A stretch of DNA of 64,000 nt from a virus (lineage: Duplodnaviria > Caudoviricetes), in the IMG/VR virus record IMGVR_UViG_3300028048_000071, positions 32,001-96,000 of that record; one strand, 5' to 3'. Both the position numbers and the translations under genes were made by a program. A model generated the notes under the pieces. That model searched no databases and had not been told where the DNA came from. It worked only from the letters and a program-made list of their open reading frames with translations. This document shows, piece by piece, positions 30,783 to 56,145 of this stretch. How positions within the stretch are numbered: the stretch's first letter is position 1; each line of letters begins with the position of its first letter.

Positions 30783-32137
30783 AGAATATATGCTTTCTAT
30801 AAAGATAGCTCAAAACGGGGAAACTCCTGAGAAGGACAATCCCGTGGGTAAGATTTATTTTAAATATATTATAATGAAAGGAGTAGAATTATGGCTAGTG
30901 GTAAAAGATACACTATCGAAGAATTTAAAAATAAATTATTAGATATAAATTCAAATATTGAAATTATTAGTGATGAATATATAAATAATCATACTCCTTT
31001 GAAATATAAATGCAAAATTTGTAATAATGAGTGGGAAGCAAAACCACAACATTTATTAAGAGGGCACGGATGTTTAAAGTGCCACTTAAATAAAATAAGT
31101 TTAAATATTAATGATATACAAAATAAGGTAGAAAATATTACTATTATTAGTATAGAAAATAATAAATTAAATTGTAAATGCGATATTTGTGGCTACGAAT
31201 GGCAGACTTATAAAAGCTGTATATTACAAGGTCATAAATGCCCACAATGTGCAATTAAAAGAAGAACATTAACAAATGAAGAATTTATAAATAGGTTAAA
31301 TCAAATTAATAAAAATATTATATTATTAGAAGAATATAATGGAGCACATAATAAAATAAAAGTAAAATGTAAGATTTGCAAACAAGAATATAAAGTTACT
31401 CCTAGTAATTTATTAAAGGGGAATAAATGTAAAAGTTGTTTAGAAATAGCGAGAACATATAGCAAAGAAGATATAGAAAAAAGATTAAACAAAATTTCTA
31501 TTATAGGTGAATATAAAAATACTCACACTAAAACATTATTTGAATGTAATAAATGTAAACATAAATGGAATGCTTTACCGTCTTCTATATTATATGGGAA
31601 TGGATGCCCAAATTGTTGTTTATCAAAAGGAGAAAGATTTATTAGACAATTTTTAGAAGATAAAAATATTACGTTTGAACAACAAAAAAGATTTTCAGAT
31701 TTATTTTATAAAAATATCAAAAATAAATTATCTTATGATTTTTATTTACCTGAATATAATTTGTTAATAGAATATAATGGAAAACAACATTATTCCCCTA
31801 TAGATAGATTTGGAGGAGAAGAAGCTTTTATTAAACAACAAAATAGAGATAAATTAAAAGAGCAATATGCAAAAAATAATAATTTAAACTTATTAATTAT
31901 AAAATATAATGAAAATATAGAAGAAAGACTAAAACAATATATTTAAAATAAAATCCCGTAACGACCACAGAGATATAGGTAACTATACTCGTATGCTATC
32001 CTTTCACATAATGTGATTGAAGGTATGGTCTGAACTGCAACTATAATCTTAAAATGAAATTGCAGAATTAGGTTTAACGACCTAATCGCCACGAATAAGT
32101 GGTCAGTAACCTATAAGGTGAAAGTAACAGAGTTTTG
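30783..32137 (+). ncRNA. group I self-splicing intron in tape measure gene
   Basis: P1 AGAAGGU/GCUUUCU with U.G at 30782; P3 GATAGC(30804-09)/GCTATC(31995-32000); P4 ACGGGG/TCCCGT; P6 stem enclosing the ORF; P7 GACCA(31963-67)/TGGTC(32026-30); terminal G 32137; splicing restores KTKK-V-YKEGLGW. Confidence 0.92.
30891..31946 (+). CDS. intron-encoded homing endonuclease (tandem CxxC zinc-ribbon repeats + Vsr/DUF559-like nuclease)
   Basis: four KCxxC..W/Y....L.G..CxxC repeats; SKGE...YDFYL...IEYNGKQHY...RDKLK; own AAAGGAG SD; lies in P6 loop. Confidence 0.85.
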   Translation: MASGKRYTIEEFKNKLLDINSNIEIISDEYINNHTPLKYKCKICNNEWEAKPQHLLRGHGCLKCHLNKISLNINDIQNKVENITIISIENNKLNCKCDICGYEWQTYKSCILQGHKCPQCAIKRRTLTNEEFINRLNQINKNIILLEEYNGAHNKIKVKCKICKQEYKVTPSNLLKGNKCKSCLEIARTYSKEDIEKRLNKISIIGEYKNTHTKTLFECNKCKHKWNALPSSILYGNGCPNCCLSKGERFIRQFLEDKNITFEQQKRFSDLFYKNIKNKLSYDFYLPEYNLLIEYNGKQHYSPIDRFGGEEAFIKQQNRDKLKEQYAKNNNLNLLIIKYNENIEERLKQYI

Positions 32138-47792: not shown

Positions 47793-50027
47793 ATGGCTAC
47801 AGTTAAGTTTTATAATGATAAAGAAAAAACTCAACAAGTATATCCAGAAATTGACCCAGATGGAAATTATCCTGGTGTCACAGTTGGACTTGCCAATAAC
47901 CTTGTTTCACCAGACGGTATAAATGATATAGATACTTGGCAATATCGTTCAACTGGTGGAGAACTTGATATTACTGATGGATATGCAACATTAAAGAAAC
48001 TTATTGGTACAACTGAATCTTCAACTATAGAAGAAAGTCTAACACATAACTTAATTACAACTGGTGTAACTTCTGTAACTGTTGATACAAGTACATTTAA
48101 AAGTCAAATAAGTACAAGTGGAACATATAATTTTATATATACTCCAACAATTACTTATTCATCTGCTTTAGTATATTCATTAAATAAAAGCACTTTTGCT
48201 AATTATGTAAGTCAAGCAACTGGAACATATACATTTACTTATACTGCTGTTGTTTCACCAGTAGATACATCTAGTGTTATACAAACTTTTACACAATCAA
48301 CATTTGTTAACAAAGTAAATGAAACACCAGATACTTATACATTTACATATAATGGTTCAAATTGGCAATTAGATGGAACAAACGTAACAATGAGTCAATA
48401 TGGTATTACAACAAAAGGAACTGAAACAAGTGGAACAACAATTACTGTTTATTATACAAGTAATTCTTGGTATTACAATAATGCCTCAATTTCTATGAGT
48501 AATTATGGTATTTCAACAACTGGCTCTGAATCTGTTGGAGACACAATTGCTATATCTTATACATCTAATGACTGGATGTTAAATAACACTGCAATAACAC
48601 TTGCTGATTACGGAATTGTAATTACAGGAGGAACTGCAGCAATTGACGATAATATTCAAATAATATTTATTGCTGAACAAGTAGGTGTAATTCAAACTGC
48701 AAATCCAACTGGATTATATAGTGTTGGAATGAACCAATTTAATAAAGATGGTTCTCAAATATTTAGAAATTATACATTAAATTCATCTGGTGGAATAAGT
48801 GCGGCAACTGGATATTATGTAATTTATTTTAAATGTATAGGAGGAGAAACTTATACTATTTATAATGAAACACCTTCATCTACTGTTAGAGTTGGTTATA
48901 GTGCAACTATCCCAACTACATCAAGCACTGTTACATTATTAAGTACAGTTTCATCATCTGAATGGGCTGATGTTCTAGTTAATGACTCATATAAATCACA
49001 CTATTATCCAAATAATCCTGGATATTTAGTTGTTGCGACAAGTGACATTGAAAATTTATGTTGTCATTTAACTTGGGAAGCAGTAAAGGATGATGTATAT
49101 GAATCTTATTTTAATTATACATTACCTATTCCATACACTGATAAAAATGGAGATGTAATAACAACTTATGGTTTAGTAAACTTAGATGATGGTACTCAAT
49201 ATTATGATGAAATAAATTTTGAAGACCTTAAATGGTATAAGAGAACAACTAGAATTGAATATAGTGCTGAAAACTTGGCAACTGTTCAAGCATTAGGTGT
49301 TCCATATTTATATGATGCAAATTGGATTTATTATGGTGTTAATACAGTTGAATATAACTTAGAAGACGTTTCTTATTCATATGAAATATCAAACTATGGT
49401 ACTGAAGAGTTTATTAACTCTGCATTGCCATTAACTGCAACAATATTCTATCAAGAAAACTTAAGAGATAAAATAAGATTCTCTATGGAAGTTATTGATA
49501 ATAAAGTTGAGAAAATTGATAGTGCTTCTACTTATACAAAATATTCAAGTGCAAAAGCATCTTATAACCTAGATAAAGCATTAAGACATATACTTGGTCT
49601 TGATGTAGATACATTCTCAACAAGCAGCACTTATGCTGTTGGTGATTATGTTGTATACGATGGTAAATTGTGGAAATGTACCACTGCCGTAACAAGTGCA
49701 GGAGCTTGGACTGGTAATGGATTATCTGTTAGAAGTAATAATAATGGAATATTACTTGATATGGACACAACTAAATTTTTAAAATTCTTAGATTCAGATA
49801 GACCTGGAAGTCCTTGTGGAATTCCTGAACTTTATGCAAATGATGGCGGTACATACCAAATTCATTTAACATATGCAACAACATCAAACGATTATCACTT
49901 CGCTAATGCTGCTGAATTAGAAGAACAAACTGGTCTTGTAGTAAGTAGTGCAACTGGTGGAGTATCATTTAGTTATAATAGTTCTTCTGCAAATTGGGAA
50001 GAATCATATTTATTTAAAGCAAATTAA
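47793..50027 (+). CDS. large tail fibre/baseplate protein with C-terminal CBM5/12-like module
   Basis: internal W...T/SMS.YGI repeats; STYAVGDYVVYDGKLWKC; last gene before cassette array. Confidence 0.72.
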   Translation: MATVKFYNDKEKTQQVYPEIDPDGNYPGVTVGLANNLVSPDGINDIDTWQYRSTGGELDITDGYATLKKLIGTTESSTIEESLTHNLITTGVTSVTVDTSTFKSQISTSGTYNFIYTPTITYSSALVYSLNKSTFANYVSQATGTYTFTYTAVVSPVDTSSVIQTFTQSTFVNKVNETPDTYTFTYNGSNWQLDGTNVTMSQYGITTKGTETSGTTITVYYTSNSWYYNNASISMSNYGISTTGSESVGDTIAISYTSNDWMLNNTAITLADYGIVITGGTAAIDDNIQIIFIAEQVGVIQTANPTGLYSVGMNQFNKDGSQIFRNYTLNSSGGISAATGYYVIYFKCIGGETYTIYNETPSSTVRVGYSATIPTTSSTVTLLSTVSSSEWADVLVNDSYKSHYYPNNPGYLVVATSDIENLCCHLTWEAVKDDVYESYFNYTLPIPYTDKNGDVITTYGLVNLDDGTQYYDEINFEDLKWYKRTTRIEYSAENLATVQALGVPYLYDANWIYYGVNTVEYNLEDVSYSYEISNYGTEEFINSALPLTATIFYQENLRDKIRFSMEVIDNKVEKIDSASTYTKYSSAKASYNLDKALRHILGLDVDTFSTSSTYAVGDYVVYDGKLWKCTTAVTSAGAWTGNGLSVRSNNNGILLDMDTTKFLKFLDSDRPGSPCGIPELYANDGGTYQIHLTYATTSNDYHFANAAELEEQTGLVVSSATGGVSFSYNSSSANWEESYLFKAN

Positions 50028-50049
50028 TGAATGAAAGGAGAATAATTTT

Positions 50050-50211
50050 ATGTTAGAAATAATTAAATCATTCTTCTCCCCTGTAGGGGGGGGCGAACAA
50101 GCTTCGCTTCACAGAATGGAAATATACAAAGGAAGGAGGATTTGCGTCAAGAGTATAGTAACTCTTCAAGCAATTCCGACTTCAATAGAAAGAGAGGTGA
50201 AGAGTATCTAA
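50050..50211 (+). CDS. leader peptide 1 of cassette-selection bank (53 aa in current G8 state; not in ORF track)
   Basis: GAAAGGAG SD; MLEIIKSFFSPV-GGG-EQ...EVKSI*; one extra G fuses it to the 50142-50486 frame. Confidence 0.8.
   Translation: MLEIIKSFFSPVGGGEQASLHRMEIYKGRRICVKSIVTLQAIPTSIEREVKSI
50086..50093 (+). repeat. poly-G tract 1 (G8), candidate phase-variable switch
   Basis: G8 after codon 12 of leader 1 in an AT-rich genome. Confidence 0.9.
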
Positions 50212-50291
50212 AATCTTCTTATGGAAGATTTGCAGATGGAAGCAACGCTTCTGTCTTAATCTCTTCATCTTTCGCAAGTGAAAATATCGTA

Positions 50292-50300
50292 GGGGGGGGG
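50292..50300 (+). repeat. poly-G tract 2 (G9)
   Basis: GTA-GGGGGGGGG-C in frame in extended leader. Confidence 0.9.
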
Positions 50301-50426
50301 CAGCTACGCTCGAATAATTATTCAGCAAGCAGTCGCTCTTATAAAGGAGGTGAAGGCAATTACGCTAGCTTAATGTCTAGTGATTTTGCCGGAACCGAGA
50401 CAATGTTAAACCCTGACCGCATAGTC

Positions 50427-50435
50427 GGGGGGGGG
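50427..50435 (+). repeat. poly-G tract 3 (G9)
   Basis: GTC-GGGGGGGGG-C in frame in extended leader. Confidence 0.9.
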
Positions 50436-50582
50436 CGAAATCCATTTGGATTCGTCTTCAAAGAAAGGGGGCAAGCCACTATTTAGACTTGCCTCTTATA
50501 CACGAAATGATTTCTCTTTCAAGAAGGGAGGTGCAGGCTTAACAGTCTGTACTCCTTTTTATTATGAAGGAGGTGTGTGTTA

Positions 50583-50966
50583 ATGCAAATTAATAAAGAC
50601 CTTATTATTAGTGGAACTAATATGACTTTAGGCGATACAGCCTATAAAGATATATATTCAACAACTGAAACCAAGACTAATAAGGTTTGGATTGATGGTC
50701 GTACTATATATAGAAAGGTTATTACTGGAAATTTATCTCAGGCACAATGGAATCACGGAATAACTTTTGATACTATTGTTTCTATAGAAGGTGTTTTTAT
50801 AAATACTAATTCTGGTAATACATTTAATATACCTAGTACAAGACCTGATTTTCCTGATTATCAAGTTGGTGTATTTGTGAATAATACATTTATAACTTTA
50901 GAACGTGCTACTGGTGCTCAACGTGCGGATATGAGTTTTTATGTAGTTTTAGAATATGTGAAATAA
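50583..50966 (+). CDS. cassette 1: tail-tip/receptor-binding module
   Basis: MQINKDL N-terminus; YSTTETKTNKVWIDGRTIYRKV fibre-tip domain; own SD AAGGAGGTG. Confidence 0.75.
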   Translation: MQINKDLIISGTNMTLGDTAYKDIYSTTETKTNKVWIDGRTIYRKVITGNLSQAQWNHGITFDTIVSIEGVFINTNSGNTFNIPSTRPDFPDYQVGVFVNNTFITLERATGAQRADMSFYVVLEYVK

Positions 50967-50995
50967 CACACACAACAGGCTAACAGCCTAACATT

Positions 50996-51403
50996 ATGGC
51001 TAAATTTACAATTAATAAAGACTTCTTTGTAGGTGATACAAATTATTCTTTAGAGGATATTCCTTTTGGAGTAGAACCCGAAGTCCCATCTAATCAAAAT
51101 TATTTTAAATTTGGGAATATGATGATTTGTTGGGGTTGGAGAAACGTAACTTTAAACTGGAATGGGAATGGAGCTTATGCTGATTTTAATTTAGCAAACG
51201 ATGGAACTCCATATAAAGATACTGCATATAGAATTGTTGGGAGTTATGCTGGAAGCACAGCTTATTATGCAGGAAACTGGTGCTGGTTTGAAAGCAAAGG
51301 GACGACAAGTGCAAGAGTAAATTGCTGGTGTGAACAAGCTAATAAACCAACATCTATTATTATAGGTTTTATAGCCATTGGAAGATGGCGTGATGCTGAA
51401 TAA
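50996..51403 (+). CDS. cassette 2: gp53-C-like tail-tip module
   Basis: TINKDF N-terminus; YFKFGNMMICWG...FIAIGRW; no local SD. Confidence 0.72.
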   Translation: MAKFTINKDFFVGDTNYSLEDIPFGVEPEVPSNQNYFKFGNMMICWGWRNVTLNWNGNGAYADFNLANDGTPYKDTAYRIVGSYAGSTAYYAGNWCWFESKGTTSARVNCWCEQANKPTSIIIGFIAIGRWRDAE

Positions 51404-51439
51404 AAACATTTCGTGATGAGCAAGCCTTTTGGCGAACTT

Positions 51440-51850
51440 ATGAAGATTAATAAAGATTTAATCGTAGAGGGTACAAATCATACATTAGAAGATATACCTT
51501 TTGATATTGATTTATCTGATGTGTATTCTACAAATGAAACAAAAACAAATAAGGTTTGGATAGATAACAGACCTATATATAGAAGAGTCGTTACCGGTAC
51601 AGTTACCGCTGCAGGTCAAGGACAAACTGTAACCACTATAAGTAATATAAGACAAATCTTGACTATAAGAGGAGTTATGTATTCTAATTATGGTCAATGG
51701 TGGAATATTCCTAATTATCACGGAGAAGCAGGATATGTAAATTCCATATACTGCGATGCAAATGGAAGAGTCAATTTAGGAGTTGGGAACTTTTATAGTG
51801 CCGGTAAACCTTTTATAATTATTTTAGAGTATACAAAATCTACTGACTAA
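51440..51850 (+). CDS. cassette 3: tail-tip module (paralogue of cassette 1)
   Basis: MKINKDL start at 51440; YSTNETKTNKVWIDNRPIYRRV...LEYTK; no local SD. Confidence 0.75.
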   Translation: MKINKDLIVEGTNHTLEDIPFDIDLSDVYSTNETKTNKVWIDNRPIYRRVVTGTVTAAGQGQTVTTISNIRQILTIRGVMYSNYGQWWNIPNYHGEAGYVNSIYCDANGRVNLGVGNFYSAGKPFIIILEYTKSTD

Positions 51851-51886
51851 CATTGTCTGAACGGCAAAAAAAATAATGCCGATTCT

Positions 51887-52309
51887 ATGAAAATAAACAA
51901 AGACTTAATTATTAGTGATACAAATTATACTTTAGGAGATGTTGCTGATTTTATATCAAATAAAATAGAAATTAAAGAGCTTGCTTCTACAACAGGAAGT
52001 GGCGAAAACATTACAATAGATTTGACCGATAGTTATAAAAATTATGACTTTTTATTAGTTCAATGGAGTCCATATTCTTTATATGGGAATATTGATTTTT
52101 ATATTATAGATACTGCTACAATTTTATCTACACAATATGGAAATTATCCTTATGAAACCGGACACCTTCAAACAACATCAGTATGGTCAAATGTCGTATT
52201 TGGCTTTTCATCAACAACTAGATTTATAGCTAAATGTGCAAATACAGGAACTTGGGGAAAAGGTTCTTTTAAAATAATTTCTATTAAAGGAATAAAATTA
52301 CCTCACTAA
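51887..52309 (+). CDS. cassette 4: tail-tip module
   Basis: MKINKDL N-terminus; LTDSYKNYDFLLV...IKGIK; no local SD. Confidence 0.72.
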   Translation: MKINKDLIISDTNYTLGDVADFISNKIEIKELASTTGSGENITIDLTDSYKNYDFLLVQWSPYSLYGNIDFYIIDTATILSTQYGNYPYETGHLQTTSVWSNVVFGFSSTTRFIAKCANTGTWGKGSFKIISIKGIKLPH

Positions 52310-52354
52310 TCACATAATAGAGCGACCGCTCGTAAATGAGCAAAAGCGAATTAA

Positions 52355-52732
52355 ATGATTATAAACACAGATTTAATCTACCCTATCGGTAGTATATATT
52401 TAAGCGTCAACGCAACCAATCCGTCAAAGTATTTTGGCGGAGCTTGGGAGCAAATTACATCAGACGCATATTTAAAGATAGTAACTCAAAATGCTGGTTC
52501 TTTAGGTGGAACCAGTGTAGACCACAAGATACCTATTGAAAGTATGCCTAGTCACGACCACGGTGTGTACGGAGCATTAACTGGAGAAAATAAACCTATT
52601 ACCAATACTGGTAATGATTGGGGAGTTAATACAACACACGGATGGACTACAAATGCCATTTCAAAGACTGGCGGTGGACAGGCTTACTATCCTTATTACT
52701 ATGGCGTTTATGTTTGGAAAAGAACTGCTTAA
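52355..52732 (+). CDS. cassette 5: gp10-C/tail-collar-like module
   Basis: MIINTDL-IYPIGSIY...FGGAWE...MPSHDH...VYVWKRTA; no local SD. Confidence 0.78.
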   Translation: MIINTDLIYPIGSIYLSVNATNPSKYFGGAWEQITSDAYLKIVTQNAGSLGGTSVDHKIPIESMPSHDHGVYGALTGENKPITNTGNDWGVNTTHGWTTNAISKTGGGQAYYPYYYGVYVWKRTA

Positions 52733-52775
52733 ATATACTCTCTTATGATGTTTTGAAGATTTAGATACAAATCTT

Positions 52776-53165
52776 ATGATTATAAATACAAATATGTTGT
52801 TAGCAGCCTATCCTGTAGGTTCGCTATATTTAACAACAAATGAAATAAACCCAGGAACCTTATTTGGTGGAACCTGGGAAAAATTGACTGGGGATGCTTA
52901 TCTTAAAATAGTGACAAGTAATCCTGGTCAATATGATGGTACGTCAGACCAACATAAAATACCTATCAATAGTATGCCTTCTCACAGACACGGTAATAGA
53001 GTTACTTTAAATATGTCTCAAGGTGCTGGTCAAGATAGAAGCCTTGTAGTTGGTGGAGGTCAAGTATGGAATACTGCGGACAATTATCAAAATCAATTTG
53101 TTGGTGGTGGACAACCTTATTATCCATATTATTATGGTATTTATGTTTGGAGACGTACAGCATAA
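52776..53165 (+). CDS. cassette 6: gp10-C/tail-collar-like module
   Basis: MIINTNML-AYPVGSLY...FGGTWE...MPSHRH...WRRTA; no local SD. Confidence 0.78.
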   Translation: MIINTNMLLAAYPVGSLYLTTNEINPGTLFGGTWEKLTGDAYLKIVTSNPGQYDGTSDQHKIPINSMPSHRHGNRVTLNMSQGAGQDRSLVVGGGQVWNTADNYQNQFVGGGQPYYPYYYGIYVWRRTA

Positions 53166-53193
53166 TCGGAATTGCTTAATGCAATAAAACTTT

Positions 53194-53367
53194 ATGAAAA
53201 ATATTTTATTAAATAAAATCCTTCACATCGGGGGGGGGCAGAAATGTCTGCTCTTCACAAGAAAGGAGGGTTGGCTATTATTTTGTAACGTCAACTCTTC
53301 AAGGAATGGAGGTGGCAGACATTTAATATCTGCTATCTCTTGTGGAGGTGTAATCTTATGCAAATAA
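53194..53367 (+). CDS. leader peptide 2 (57 aa in current G9 state; not in ORF track)
   Basis: MKNILLNKILHI-GGG-QK...ILCK*; no local SD; stop lies just inside cassette 7 start. Confidence 0.72.
   Translation: MKNILLNKILHIGGGQKCLLFTRKEGWLLFCNVNSSRNGGGRHLISAISCGGVILCK
53230..53238 (+). repeat. poly-G tract 4 (G9)
   Basis: ATC-GGGGGGGGG-C after codon 12 of leader 2. Confidence 0.9.
53230..53361 (+). promoter_or_regulatory. RBS bank 2: three SD modules
   Basis: AAAGGAGGG 53262, GGAGGTG 53308, GGAGGTG 53344; first two in hairpins without a cassette ATG. Confidence 0.8.
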
Positions 53368-53750
53368 ACGTAGATTTAATATATCCTATAGGTTCTTTAT
53401 ATTTAACAACGTCTACTGTATCACCAGCAGTTTTGTTTGGTGGTACTTGGGAACGCATTAAAGGTAGATGTATTGTAGGTGTAGACGAAAATGACACCGA
53501 CTTTAATACTGTTAGTAAAACCGGCGGTGAAAAAACACATACATTGACTGTGGATGAAATGCCAGCACACAATCACAATATTCAAGGTGCGATGAATGGT
53601 GCTTCTGGAAGTAGTTGGTGTGTTGCTTTAAATAGTGATAGAAGCGTAAACTGGTCTATCACTAATGGGTCACAAAATAAAGGTGGTGGACAAGCACATA
53701 ACAATCTACAACCTTATTACACTGCTTATATATGGCGAAGAACCGCATAA
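53358..53750 (+). CDS. cassette 7: gp10-C/tail-collar-like module
   Basis: MQINVDL-IYPIGSLY...GGEKTHTLT..EMPAHNH...AHNNLQPY...WRRTA; own SD. Confidence 0.8.
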   Translation: MQINVDLIYPIGSLYLTTSTVSPAVLFGGTWERIKGRCIVGVDENDTDFNTVSKTGGEKTHTLTVDEMPAHNHNIQGAMNGASGSSWCVALNSDRSVNWSITNGSQNKGGGQAHNNLQPYYTAYIWRRTA

Positions 53751-53781
53751 GATTACTTAGATATTAAATTGTCGAATAATT

Positions 53782-54159
53782 ATGAAAATAAACTTAGATT
53801 TTATATATCCTGTTGGAAGTATTTATATGAGTGTTAATGCTACAAATCCAGGAATTTTATTTGGAGGAACTTGGACTCAATTAAAAGATAGGTTCTTACT
53901 TGGTGCTGGAAATACATATTCCGCTGGAGATACTGGTGGAGAGGCAACTCATACGTTAACTTATAATGAAATGCCTCAACATAGTCACACATTGTATAAT
54001 GAAAATGCAAGTGGATGGACTTTAAGTAAAGCATCTTTAAAAACAGGAACAAATAAAGGATATTCTGGTAATATCCAAATTGGAGATGCTGGAGGTAATC
54101 AAGCACATAATAATATGCCTCCATATCTAGTAGTCTATATGTGGAAAAGAACTGCATAA
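53782..54159 (+). CDS. cassette 8: gp10-C/tail-collar-like module
   Basis: MKINLDF-IYPVGSIY...GGEATHTLT..EMPQHSH...WKRTA; no local SD. Confidence 0.8.
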   Translation: MKINLDFIYPVGSIYMSVNATNPGILFGGTWTQLKDRFLLGAGNTYSAGDTGGEATHTLTYNEMPQHSHTLYNENASGWTLSKASLKTGTNKGYSGNIQIGDAGGNQAHNNMPPYLVVYMWKRTA

Positions 54160-54205
54160 ATTATTTTGACAAAAAGAGTTGACACTAAAATAATAGTGTT
54201 ATAAT

Positions 54206-54634
54206 ATGAAAATAAATGAAGATTTAATAATTAATGGAACGGATTTAAATTTAAATGATATAGTACAAAAAATATCGGCACTTGAAAAATATCAAGTAGA
54301 ATATAATGCTGATTCAATTACTTTGACATTTACAAATAAATATCCTTGTATAGCAATTACATATATGTCTCACGCAGGATGGGGATTTGGAGGAAATGAA
54401 TGGATTTGGAATGCTGATTTAACTAATTCTGTTCATTTAGGTTATACTAAAGCCTATGTTAATGGTAATGACTTATTATCAAGATTTATGAGTTCTGTGT
54501 CAATTAACTATTGTCCAACTGCGGGAGTAGAACATACAACTGTAAGAACTACAACCAAGGGTAACTCTGGTAATAGCAATGGACAATCAGTATGTGTTAT
54601 TTGTTTACCATTAATAACTAATTCAAAAGAATAA
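54206..54634 (+). CDS. cassette 9: tail-tip module of a different type
   Basis: MKINEDLIINGT N-terminus shared with cassettes 1,3,4; no local SD. Confidence 0.68.
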   Translation: MKINEDLIINGTDLNLNDIVQKISALEKYQVEYNADSITLTFTNKYPCIAITYMSHAGWGFGGNEWIWNADLTNSVHLGYTKAYVNGNDLLSRFMSSVSINYCPTAGVEHTTVRTTTKGNSGNSNGQSVCVICLPLITNSKE

Positions 54635-54656
54635 TTATAAGAAATAGAGTAAAATG

Positions 54657-54701
54657 AAAGGGGAATAACTTAACTAAAATTTTTGTTATTTCCTTTTTTT
54701 T
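54657..54701 (+). terminator. intrinsic terminator ending the late/cassette operon
   Basis: AAAGGGGAATAAC...GTTATTTCCTTT then T run. Confidence 0.7.
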
Positions 54702-54706
54702 ACCGC

Positions 54707-54735
54707 TTGACATTATCTTCTTTTTGTGCTATAAT
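54707..54735 (+). promoter_or_regulatory. sigma-A promoter for modification/replication operon
   Basis: perfect TTGACA-17 bp-TATAAT with extended TG. Confidence 0.88.
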
Positions 54736-54794
54736 GCAATTACAATAGAAGGGAGATAATGTGAGGAGACAATACAAGAAGGGGTGAAACAACA

Positions 54795-54965
54795 ATGAAG
54801 AAATATTTATTGTATTTATTACGATGGCAATTGTCTACTCCAATTTTAGCTATTGTTTTATATATATTCAAAACAAATGAAATTTTAGAAACCATAATAG
54901 CCAATTTAATTGGTGGTCTAATTTTCTTTTGGGTTGATAAATGGATATTTAAAGAAAAGAGGTGA
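54795..54965 (+). CDS. small membrane protein (56 aa; not in ORF track)
   Basis: GGGGTGA SD; MKKYLLYLLRWQLSTPIL...ANLIGGLIFFWVDKWIF. Confidence 0.7.
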   Translation: MKKYLLYLLRWQLSTPILAIVLYIFKTNEILETIIANLIGGLIFFWVDKWIFKEKR

Positions 54966-54971
54966 GTTGGA

Positions 54972-55172
54972 ATGAATAATGATTTTCTAAACGATGATAT
55001 TAAAGATGCTCTTATTGAAAGAGATGGATTTAGACAGCAAGTTGAAGATTTAACTAAAATATTAAAAGAAATTCATCTTTATTTGGTGGGGAGATTTAAT
55101 GAGACTCAAGATACAAAATATTTAGATGACTTAATTAAATTCCAAGAAATGTGTGGTGACTATTATGGATGA
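54972..55172 (+). CDS. hypothetical protein
   Basis: 66 aa, GAGGTG SD. Confidence 0.65.
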   Translation: MNNDFLNDDIKDALIERDGFRQQVEDLTKILKEIHLYLVGRFNETQDTKYLDDLIKFQEMCGDYYG

Positions 55173-56145
55173 TAGTCAATATATTATACAGATAATTAAA
55201 TCTGACAGAGAGTACCCTTATGGGCAATGTATAACACCTAAAGAAATTATTCATAAAGATAGTATTACATCGGAGGATATTATTATTGTAAATGATAAAC
55301 TTAATAAACTTGATGATATTGACTTATATTTAGTAGATTTAAAAGTTAAATTTGCACAAATAAATCCTGAAAAATATTATTTAAGTTACTCTGGAGGAAA
55401 AGATAGTCACTTGCTTTATTGGTTCATTAAAAATTATCTAAAATGCAATGATATTAAAATTATAGGGATAAATACTTATATGGAAAATCCTCAAATCCTA
55501 AAAAGAATTATTAAAAATAGTGATAAGGTTTTACTGCCTACTCTTAAACCATTTGAGATAAAAGAAAAATACGGAATTCCTTGTTTTAGTAAAGAACAAG
55601 ATTTCTATATATATTATTATCAGAATGCACTTAGAAAAGGTAAAAAACCTAGCAAAACAATACAACAGAAAATTGATGGGACTTATGATAAAGGATTTAG
55701 TGGTATTTCTAAAAAGGCAAGAGAATATGTAAAAAGTGGTAATGCTCACAATATAACTCACTTGTGTTGCTATTATTTAAAGAAAAAACCAGCACACGAC
55801 TTTGAAAAAGAAACTGGTTTAAAGCCTATATTGGGAATTAGAAGTGAAGAATCTGCTTTAAGAAAAAGACAGTATACAACTTGCTTTTCTAAAAATGGTA
55901 AATTCACGCCAATACATAATTTAACAGATGACATTTTAGAAGGAATCATATCTAAATATAATATAGAAGTTCCAGAAATATATAATCATATAAAGAGGAC
56001 TGGATGTGAAGGTTGTCCTTATGGTAGTTATTATCACGAAACAGAAAAAGAACTTGAATTAATGACTCCAGCCAAAAAGAAGTTTGTTTGTGAGTTGTTT
56101 AAAGAAAGTTATGAAGTTTTAGGAATTGAGGTGAAGGAAGAATGA
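55165..56145 (+). CDS. PAPS reductase-family (PP-loop, Fe-S) protein
   Basis: SYSGGKDS PP-loop, CCYYLKKKP, GIRSEES..R, RTGCEGCP. Confidence 0.85.
   Translation: MDDSQYIIQIIKSDREYPYGQCITPKEIIHKDSITSEDIIIVNDKLNKLDDIDLYLVDLKVKFAQINPEKYYLSYSGGKDSHLLYWFIKNYLKCNDIKIIGINTYMENPQILKRIIKNSDKVLLPTLKPFEIKEKYGIPCFSKEQDFYIYYYQNALRKGKKPSKTIQQKIDGTYDKGFSGISKKAREYVKSGNAHNITHLCCYYLKKKPAHDFEKETGLKPILGIRSEESALRKRQYTTCFSKNGKFTPIHNLTDDILEGIISKYNIEVPEIYNHIKRTGCEGCPYGSYYHETEKELELMTPAKKKFVCELFKESYEVLGIEVKEE

Follow-up and report, generated by a model that had tools for sequence, protein, structure and literature searches.

The window analysed here is a stretch of 64,000 nucleotides (nt) that spans positions 32,001 to 96,000 of IMG/VR virus record IMGVR_UViG_3300028048_000071, a sequence of 132,932 base pairs (bp) rated complete by CheckV. 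The record is a rumen-type phage with nine alternative tail-tip genes, and our subject is the locus that carries these genes, in particular a short second leader frame (leader 2) and the three tail-tip cassettes behind it. The locus begins with a fibre gene and continues with leader 1, which holds three G-tracts (T1-T3), cassettes 1-6, leader 2 with its single G-tract (T4), cassettes 7-9, a hairpin with a T-run, and a promoter. G runs of at least seven occur in the whole 133-kilobase (kb) genome only as T1-T4, all on the sense strand, and, as in contingency loci, slippage-prone tracts of G8-G9 lie 12 codons into each leader. The original prediction, made from the letters alone, held that the second bank of cassettes is itself an output of the first. 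The features on which this reading turns are as follows, where SD denotes a Shine-Dalgarno sequence, a module is a leader segment built around one stop codon, and a spacer is the segment before a start.

47793..50027, plus strand: tail fibre gene of 744 amino acids (aa) at the operon head, an open reading frame with a CBM_5_12 match; conserved anchor of the locus in all relatives (55-92% identity)
50050..50582, plus strand: leader 1 (bank 1), ATG at 50050, with tracts T1 50086-93 (G8), T2 50292-300 (G9) and T3 50427-35 (G9)
50128..50183, plus strand: bank 1 module 1, the predicted output addressing leader 2, entered with T1 = G7 or G10
53166..53193, plus strand: address spacer of leader 2, 28 nt, no SD; its helix stops 9 nt before the ATG
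53194..53367, plus strand: leader 2 frame with the tract length found in the sequence (G9); it runs 7 nt into cassette 7
53230..53238, plus strand: tract T4 (G9), exactly 12 codons after the leader 2 ATG
53263..53299, plus strand: cassette 9 module, SD 53263-70 masked by 53290-99; address arms 53274-84 and 53290-99, with the stop 53286-88 between them
53308..53343, plus strand: cassette 8 module, SD 53308-14 forming the 5' strand of a 12-bp hairpin; stop 53324-26 in the loop; address arm 53318-31
53344..53367, plus strand: cassette 7 ribosome-binding site, SD 53344-50 (-10.6), ATG 53358, G9 leader stop 53365-67
53358..53750, plus strand: cassette 7, Gp10_C tip protein (PF21939, E 1.7e-29)
53751..53781, plus strand: address spacer of cassette 8, no SD; arm 53756-73, which includes 53759-69; helix stops 8 nt before the ATG
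53782..54159, plus strand: cassette 8, Gp10_C tip protein (PF21939, E 3.1e-24)
54160..54205, plus strand: address spacer of cassette 9, no SD; arms 54174-83 and 54187-97; helix stops 8 nt before the ATG
54206..54634, plus strand: cassette 9, tip protein of another fold with N-terminal M-K-I-N-x-D-L-I; weak jelly-roll match below the Pfam cut-off

All nine cassettes lie in one orientation on the plus strand, encode 125-145 aa each and share the N-terminal start M-x-I-N-x-D-L-I. Cassettes 5-8 match Gp10_C (PF21939; E 7e-11 to 2e-29), and cassette 7 also resembles the C-terminal ends of PHROG tail-fibre families; for these reasons we regard the nine cassettes as alternative tail tips. Profile searches with cassettes 1-4 and 9 gave no significant family match, only the common N-terminal motif. 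At the nucleotide level the 4.7-kb locus had no match among 50,697 phage records, and a scan of 49800-54900 with Rfam 15 gave four sub-threshold hits, none of which reached the gathering score.

In both leaders, each frame that leaves a tract either runs to the next tract or halts at one specific stop. Leader 1 has seven such stops (50156, 50209, 50315, 50371, 50484, 50540 and 50581), and its frame as sequenced terminates at 50209, in the module of cassette 6. The three frames of T4 end at 53365 with G9 (cassette 7), at 53324 with G8 (cassette 8) and at 53286 with G10 (cassette 9). At two of the cassettes the connection between stop and start is local. Cassette 1 is coupled to leader 1 by overlap, through TAATG at 50581-85 with an SD of -13.4 kcal/mol, and the start of cassette 7 is predicted to be coupled to the leader 2 stop in the same ordinary way.

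Address pairing between modules and spacers

Leader 2 was predicted to lack an SD of its own and to have an upstream spacer that pairs, like that of a cassette, with the first module of bank 1, and both points hold. The anti-SD duplex at the leader 2 ATG (53194) has an energy of +2.1 kcal/mol, the weakest among the more than 50 starts that we scored. Its spacer at 53166-77 (TCGGAATTGCTT) is the exact reverse complement of 50168-79 over 12 bp, and a second helix of 6 bp, with one G-U pair, joins 53179-84 to 50142-47. These two stretches of leader 1 are the address arms of module 1, in which an orphan SD (50131-40) is followed by a hairpin whose loop holds the stops TAG 50156 and TAA 50159. The inner stem of this hairpin is AAGAGTA/TACTCTT in the window and in two relatives (L002 and L025), and CAAGGT/ACCTTG in two others (L012 and L014). 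The stem swap leaves the stop in the loop and the address arm the same, and from the aligned sequences it reads as a compensatory change.

The same arrangement is found within bank 2, where the repeats that had been described for cassettes 8 and 9 are present at the expected positions, including the G10 and G8 stops. For cassette 9, 53275-84 pairs with 54187-96 and 53290-99 with 54174-83, each over 10 perfect bp, and the two helices flank TAA 53286-88. For cassette 8, 53321-31 pairs with 53759-69 over 11 perfect bp that contain TAA 53324-26. The best duplex partners of the bank 2 modules are, in order, the spacers of cassettes 9 and 8, followed by the cassette 7 overlap, so that the first module pairs with the farthest target. 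When each stop of bank 1 is examined with 30 nt on either side, the best duplex partners are, in order, leader 2 and cassettes 6, 5, 4, 3 and 2, and the seventh stop overlaps the start of cassette 1. Bank 2 thus repeats the design of bank 1, as was claimed for it, with a one-to-one nested mapping of stops to spacers in both. The farthest target of bank 1 is no cassette but a further leader, which has a tract and three outputs of its own; strict nesting, in which the first module pairs with the farthest target, explains why the sub-bank lies at the far end and takes its address from module 1.

A generic search for inverted repeats was swamped by AT-rich noise, yielding 105 pairs in 4.7 kb, and was replaced by duplex-energy tests against controls. 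The longest perfect match of each spacer was compared with 300 control windows, and its duplex energy, as a z score, with dinucleotide-shuffled spacers. The longest match was reached by 4 of the 300 control windows for leader 2, by none for cassette 8 and by 2 for cassette 9; the corresponding z scores were -3.2, -2.8 and -3.9. All eight spacers of the window exceeded about 99% of the 300 control windows. Over three lineages (the window, L005 and L015), all 18 spacers beat their shuffles with a mean z of -3.9, and nearly all of them favoured their own leader over other leaders. Matrices of modules against spacers were perfectly anti-diagonal in banks W1, W2, L005, L015A and L015B, and likewise in L068 and L037, so that nested one-to-one pairing is found in seven banks of unrelated sequence that belong to five phage lineages.

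The targets of these helices lack SDs, whereas orphan SDs lie inside the leaders. Anti-SD energies at cassettes 8 and 9 are 0.1 and 0.7 kcal/mol, against a background median of -9.0 and values of -9.0 to -13.4 for leader 1 and cassettes 1 and 7; 74% of the genes of the phage have an SD energy of -6 kcal/mol or lower. Coupling of the overlap type does not account for cassettes 8 and 9 or leader 2, whose paired stops are 0.4-3 kb away and whose starts have no SD. If there is coupling at these three starts, it would run through the helix, which would be a new element.

The leaders are also strongly folded on their own: against shuffles, the local fold of leader 2 has a z score of -5.68, and that of the initial part of leader 1 has one of -5.60. 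In the local folds 117 of 137 SD bases are paired and only 16 of 69 stop-codon bases, compared with 65% overall. A typical module is a hairpin with the SD as its 5' strand, the frame-specific stop in its loop and a CU-rich 3' strand, and the segment complementary to the spacer spans the loop, continues through the 3' strand and usually includes a further arm immediately 3' of the hairpin. Because of this span, a module can either mask its SD locally or pair fully with the spacer, but not both. In the cassette 9 module, for example, five of six SD bases are paired in the module alone and none of six once it forms a duplex with spacer 9. One end of the helix has both the SD, at 2-5 nt, and the target ATG, at 6-9 nt, close to it, a geometry that, judged from the coordinates, is that of a split ribosome-binding site.

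Three smaller features were seen in bank 2. At 53232-53256 the G-tract pairs with the downstream CUGCUCUUC in the local fold, and similar tract hairpins occur in leader 1 and in L005; since the tract sits in a hairpin, a change in its length would also alter that hairpin. Directly 3' of the cassette 7 stop, the first bases of spacer 8 (GATTAC, 53751-56) are complementary to GTAATC (53350-55) between the SD and ATG of cassette 7, which may allow feedback on, or masking of, the cassette 7 start by its own 3' end. Spacer 9 (54160-54205) contains two TTGACA hexamers and, just before the ATG, TGTTATAAT, together promoter-like at 10-11 of 12 positions. This likeness is probably coincidental because a transcript from it would begin at or past the ATG.

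Related banks and the counting rule

Across relatives the number of tracts and the number of cassettes keep step. One tract goes with three cassettes (L068 and L037), two with five (L015), three with seven (L005, L008 and L009) and four with nine (the window and L002). L005, L008 and L009, whose fibre genes are 75% identical to that of the window, have three tracts, no relay or second leader, and exactly seven cassettes. Each of their spacers pairs with its own module through perfect cores of 10-14 bp, in nested order, with sequences unrelated to those of the window. L068, with (AAAC)8, and L037, with (ACAA)9, carry unrelated fibre genes ahead of single-tract, three-cassette units that show the same nested pairing (spacer z scores of -6.0 and -5.0 in L068, and of -2.1 and -4.2 in L037). 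These two are the phages with a lone single-tract, three-cassette unit that the original prediction had proposed to look for.

The closest parallel to the relay is L015, a 112-kb relative with 55% fibre identity. Its first bank is led by (CAAT)8 and has three outcomes, and the first module pairs, over 10 and 11 bp, with a spacer that lacks an SD and precedes a second leader with a G9 tract. The three outcomes of this second leader address three further cassettes, for a total of two tracts and five cassettes. The cassettes of L015 (L015:12537-14923) are closed by in-frame TGA codons unless they are read with code 4 (TGA=Trp). By its predicted wiring L015 is a second, independent relay with another repeat type and another genetic code, and the need for TGA=Trp implies that the selector architecture would also operate in a recoded phage or host. 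The view of bank 2 as an output of bank 1, and of a one-tract, three-output unit that can be chained or nested, is thus supported by the L015 relay, the three-tract chains of L005, L008 and L009, the single units of L068 and L037, and the covariation in module 1. One detail of the original prediction did not survive this comparison. Twelve codons before the tract had been taken as a design feature; the number is true of both leaders in the window, yet it ranges from about 2 to 23 in relatives (22 in leader 1 of L002, 14 in L005, about 2 and 8 in L015, about 14 in L068 and about 23 in L037), and is a coincidence of lineage.

Spacers are conserved by position even where cassettes have been swapped, and remnants of the 3' ends of displaced cassettes precede them. 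Such remnants are seen, for example, at L002:8688-8740 and at spacer 4 of L008 (reverse strand), where they encode ...YVWRRTA / ...YVWKRIA between the stop of the new cassette and the address spacer. Because spacers hold their position while cassettes differ, the address belongs to the slot and not to the gene, and the sequences clearly point to cassettes that were exchanged by recombination with their addresses kept.

Repeat lengths differ among close relatives. The repeat types used by relatives are G(n), (CAAT)n, (AAAC)n, (ACAA)n and (AC)n. In near-identical assembled contigs T1 is G8 in the window, G9 in L002, L012 and L025, and G11 in L014, and the assembled contigs of the L005 group have G8, G9 and G10 at T3. 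When the leader is walked from its ATG, the frame ends at the module of cassette 6 in the window and L014, of cassette 1 in L002, L012 and L005, of cassette 2 in L003/L013 and L009, and of cassette 3 in L004.

A search of viral contigs for other copies of the bank 2 leader found only L002. A scan of a genome collection gave one further copy of leader 1 (L025) and two irrelevant N-terminal hits. L025 (JAZUNZ010000019.1) is a 6.1-kb contig with a 91% identical fibre gene and leader 1 tracts of G9/G9/G8, from a Clostridia metagenome-assembled genome bin, and this bin is the sole, weak hint to the host of the phage. A simpler arrangement occurs at L057:7340-8060, and also in L058 and L062, where each of the short upstream frames, which carry (AC)10 and (AG)8, runs into a single tip gene through a TAATG-type overlap; read from its sequence, this would be a plain on/off form of the repeat-gated coupler.

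The proposed selector and competing explanations

We think that the locus is probably a two-level, translation-based selector that expresses one of nine alternative tail-tip proteins. The mechanism that we propose for it is plausible and would run as follows. DNA slippage would fix the tract length and hence the frame. The ribosome on the leader would then melt each hairpin that it crosses and terminate inside one of them. In a frame that reads through a module, the ribosome would also sweep the address arm, and the local hairpin would reclose behind it; modules past the stop would stay unopened. Only at the module of termination would the SD be unmasked while the downstream address arm is left untouched. 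There the tethered spacer could capture the arm, hold the SD open and set its own ATG beside it as a split ribosome-binding site, with initiation by the retained subunit or by a new 30S. With T1 at G7 or G10, leader 2 would be switched on and T4 would pick cassette 7 (G9), 8 (G8) or 9 (G10). With T1 at G8, its length in the sequenced window, cassette 6 would be expressed and bank 2 would stay silent. The hierarchical reading of the two banks is supported by the pairing and by the relatives; on this reading, the state of T1 would govern whether leader 2 is translated.

As a general design, we lean, though only slightly, towards a natural, cascadable, RNA-encoded multiplexer, in which repeat length sets the frame, the frame sets the hairpin in which translation stops, the SD is unmasked only there, and an addressed helix carries it to an SD-less start up to 3 kb away. 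The same reading would have the design work with different repeat types and under two genetic codes. Since one output can be another leader, decision trees of 3, 5, 7 or 9 outputs could be built from the one unit.

Several observations weigh against the selector. Sense and antisense duplex energies did not differ significantly (16 of 22, p = 0.26) and the leader/spacer pairs are nearly all Watson-Crick, so pairing alone proves no role at the RNA level; that part of the reading therefore rests on the context that the SDs, stops, start codons and geometry provide, all of it on the sense strand. The long-range helices are not formed in the global minimum-energy fold of 53166-54215 (1,050 nt), and in two-strand folds most modules keep their local hairpin and pair only via the flanking arm. 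Equilibrium folds thus disfavour the long-range helices, and the switch would therefore have to be kinetic and driven by the ribosome. SD and stop are anywhere from 7 to 20 nt apart, and AU-rich SD-less starts might initiate by themselves. Because the contigs are assemblies, homopolymer error may explain part of the tract differences. Finally, L028:5344-7423 (also L029) has (CAAT)13 and (AC)8 with only four cassettes and one well-matched spacer. The spacer before its third cassette is identical to spacer 8 of the window (53751-81), and the arrangement, which breaks the 2n+1 rule, has the look of a recent mosaic in which the addresses do not match.

The most serious competitor comes from the RNA phage MS2, in which sequence in an upstream frame pairs with a downstream initiation region, so that upstream translation controls downstream initiation. 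By analogy with the coat and replicase genes of MS2, the helices would be repressors that hide the cassette starts and are relieved by ribosomes crossing the leader, with graded output and SD-like motifs that are incidental. Complementarity between an upstream frame and a downstream start, the hallmark of that system, is present here, and the helices occupy the region where 30S would dock. However, they stop 6-9 nt before the ATG and sequester neither the SD, which is absent, nor the start codon. Repression of this kind also leaves unexplained why every module has an SD close to the helix (2-5 nt), masked by a hairpin with a frame-specific stop in its loop, and why outputs equal stops in number, and the path to cassette 1 would unmask all cassettes at once. 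We regard it as unlikely. Marginally less likely again is constitutive translation from AU-rich starts, in which the tracts would gate only cassettes 1 and 7, and the complementarity would serve RNA processing or stability, such as double-strand cleavage, or would be a footprint of exchange. Initiation without an SD on unstructured A/U-rich leaders is known, plain couplers of one tract and one gene occur in L057, L058 and L062, and recombination clearly exchanges cassettes. Yet footprints of exchange would not match leader segments at frame-specific stops, nested one-to-one, in seven unrelated banks; most genes of this phage use an SD, and a second leader with a tract and three stops would be purposeless.

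It is very improbable that the inverted repeats act on DNA, in a programmed inversion or rearrangement like that of the Mu and P1 segments or of shufflons. In favour of this idea, the repeats are inverted, most of their pairs are Watson-Crick, the sense-antisense comparison does not decide the matter, and the genome does encode one tyrosine recombinase. Against this, the cassettes are all co-oriented, each repeat pair is unique in sequence and hence offers no common crossover site, a flip between leader arm and spacer would not, from its geometry, join the leader SD to the cassette, and the contigs long enough to judge are all colinear. No serine invertase or Resolvase-family hit was found in the genome. 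The sole recombinase match, to the Phage_integrase family (E 1e-27), lies at G000:C1:5676-6206, outside the window and 76 kb from the locus, and points to a temperate or Xer-like role that is separate from the selector. Chance matching in AT-rich DNA, for which the 105 inverted pairs of the generic search could be cited, deserves almost no credence given the control windows, the shuffles, the cross-leader controls and the nested one-to-one mapping replicated in five lineages; the argument that a repeated design speaks against coincidence is borne out by these tests. An integron-like reading was dropped, since it is the leader, and not the 3' end of each cassette, that holds the repeat partners.

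Relation to known systems and neighbouring sequence

Poly-G tracts in the receptor-binding-protein genes of Campylobacter phages are hypermutable, and contingency loci are also described there for T2/T4 (bioRxiv 10.1101/2025.10.21.683753). The tracts described here resemble the Campylobacter phage tracts in being slippage-prone repeats with reversible frame changes, in the diversity of host range or defence escape that these could provide, and in lengths that vary among close relatives. Those tracts lie inside a gene and turn it on or off, whereas the tracts here lie in leader frames that look non-coding, use all three frames, appear to route translation to as many as nine genes and have a second tier.

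Among translational systems, MS2 has one target and masks a complete ribosome-binding site, whereas here the targets are SD-less, the helix appears to deliver the SD, and each leader has up to seven differently addressed helices that span 0.4-3 kb. In T4 genes 38 and 25, a distant SD and start are bridged by a constitutive local hairpin of about 20-30 nt. The proposed helix would likewise bring SD and start codon to working distance, but it is conditional and long-range, and its SD belongs to another reading-frame unit kilobases upstream. In synthetic toehold switches, an SD sequestered in a hairpin is freed by a complementary strand that invades from a single-stranded toehold. Those switches are artificial and use a trigger RNA in trans, whereas here the invading strand would be a distant part of the same natural messenger RNA (mRNA) and opening is proposed to follow ribosome termination.

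Tail-fibre switching is otherwise achieved by DNA inversion (Mu Gin and the G segment, P1 Cin, the R64 shufflon) or by diversity-generating retroelements. The locus described here shares with both the provision of alternative receptor-binding tips from one genome and population bet-hedging. Unlike the inversion systems, it has no invertase beside it, no inverted cassettes and no shared crossover sites, and the choice is apparently made at translation; unlike the retroelements, it shows no reverse transcriptase or template repeat. None of the compared systems is known to route translation by frame to one of several genes via addressed helices, or to cascade. Our literature searches found no description of such a frame-routed selector, and a leader wired as the output of another leader is a layout not described before.

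If the selector reading is true, phages choose among many receptor-binding tips without recombinase or reverse transcriptase, by replication slippage and mRNA architecture. It would also represent a new principle of bacterial translation, in which an SD is lent to a distant start via an addressable helix and gated by the site of upstream termination, and its units would combine into a hierarchy, an unusual property among natural post-transcriptional circuits. Host-range prediction from phage genomes would be affected because one genome would carry up to nine adsorption phenotypes. For synthetic biology, the arrangement would offer a compact, protein-free design for selecting one of N genes.

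Downstream of cassette 9 the array is closed by the following feature.

54662..54735, plus strand: end of the transcription unit, a hairpin with T8 at 54662-54701 read from the sequence, followed by a 12/12 consensus promoter, TTGACA-17-TATAAT with an upstream TG, at 54707-35

Together the hairpin and promoter form the boundary between the tail operon and the unit that follows. Just 3' of the array, at 55153-56145 of the window, lies a phosphoadenosine phosphosulfate reductase-like gene (PHROG 424, E 2e-25).

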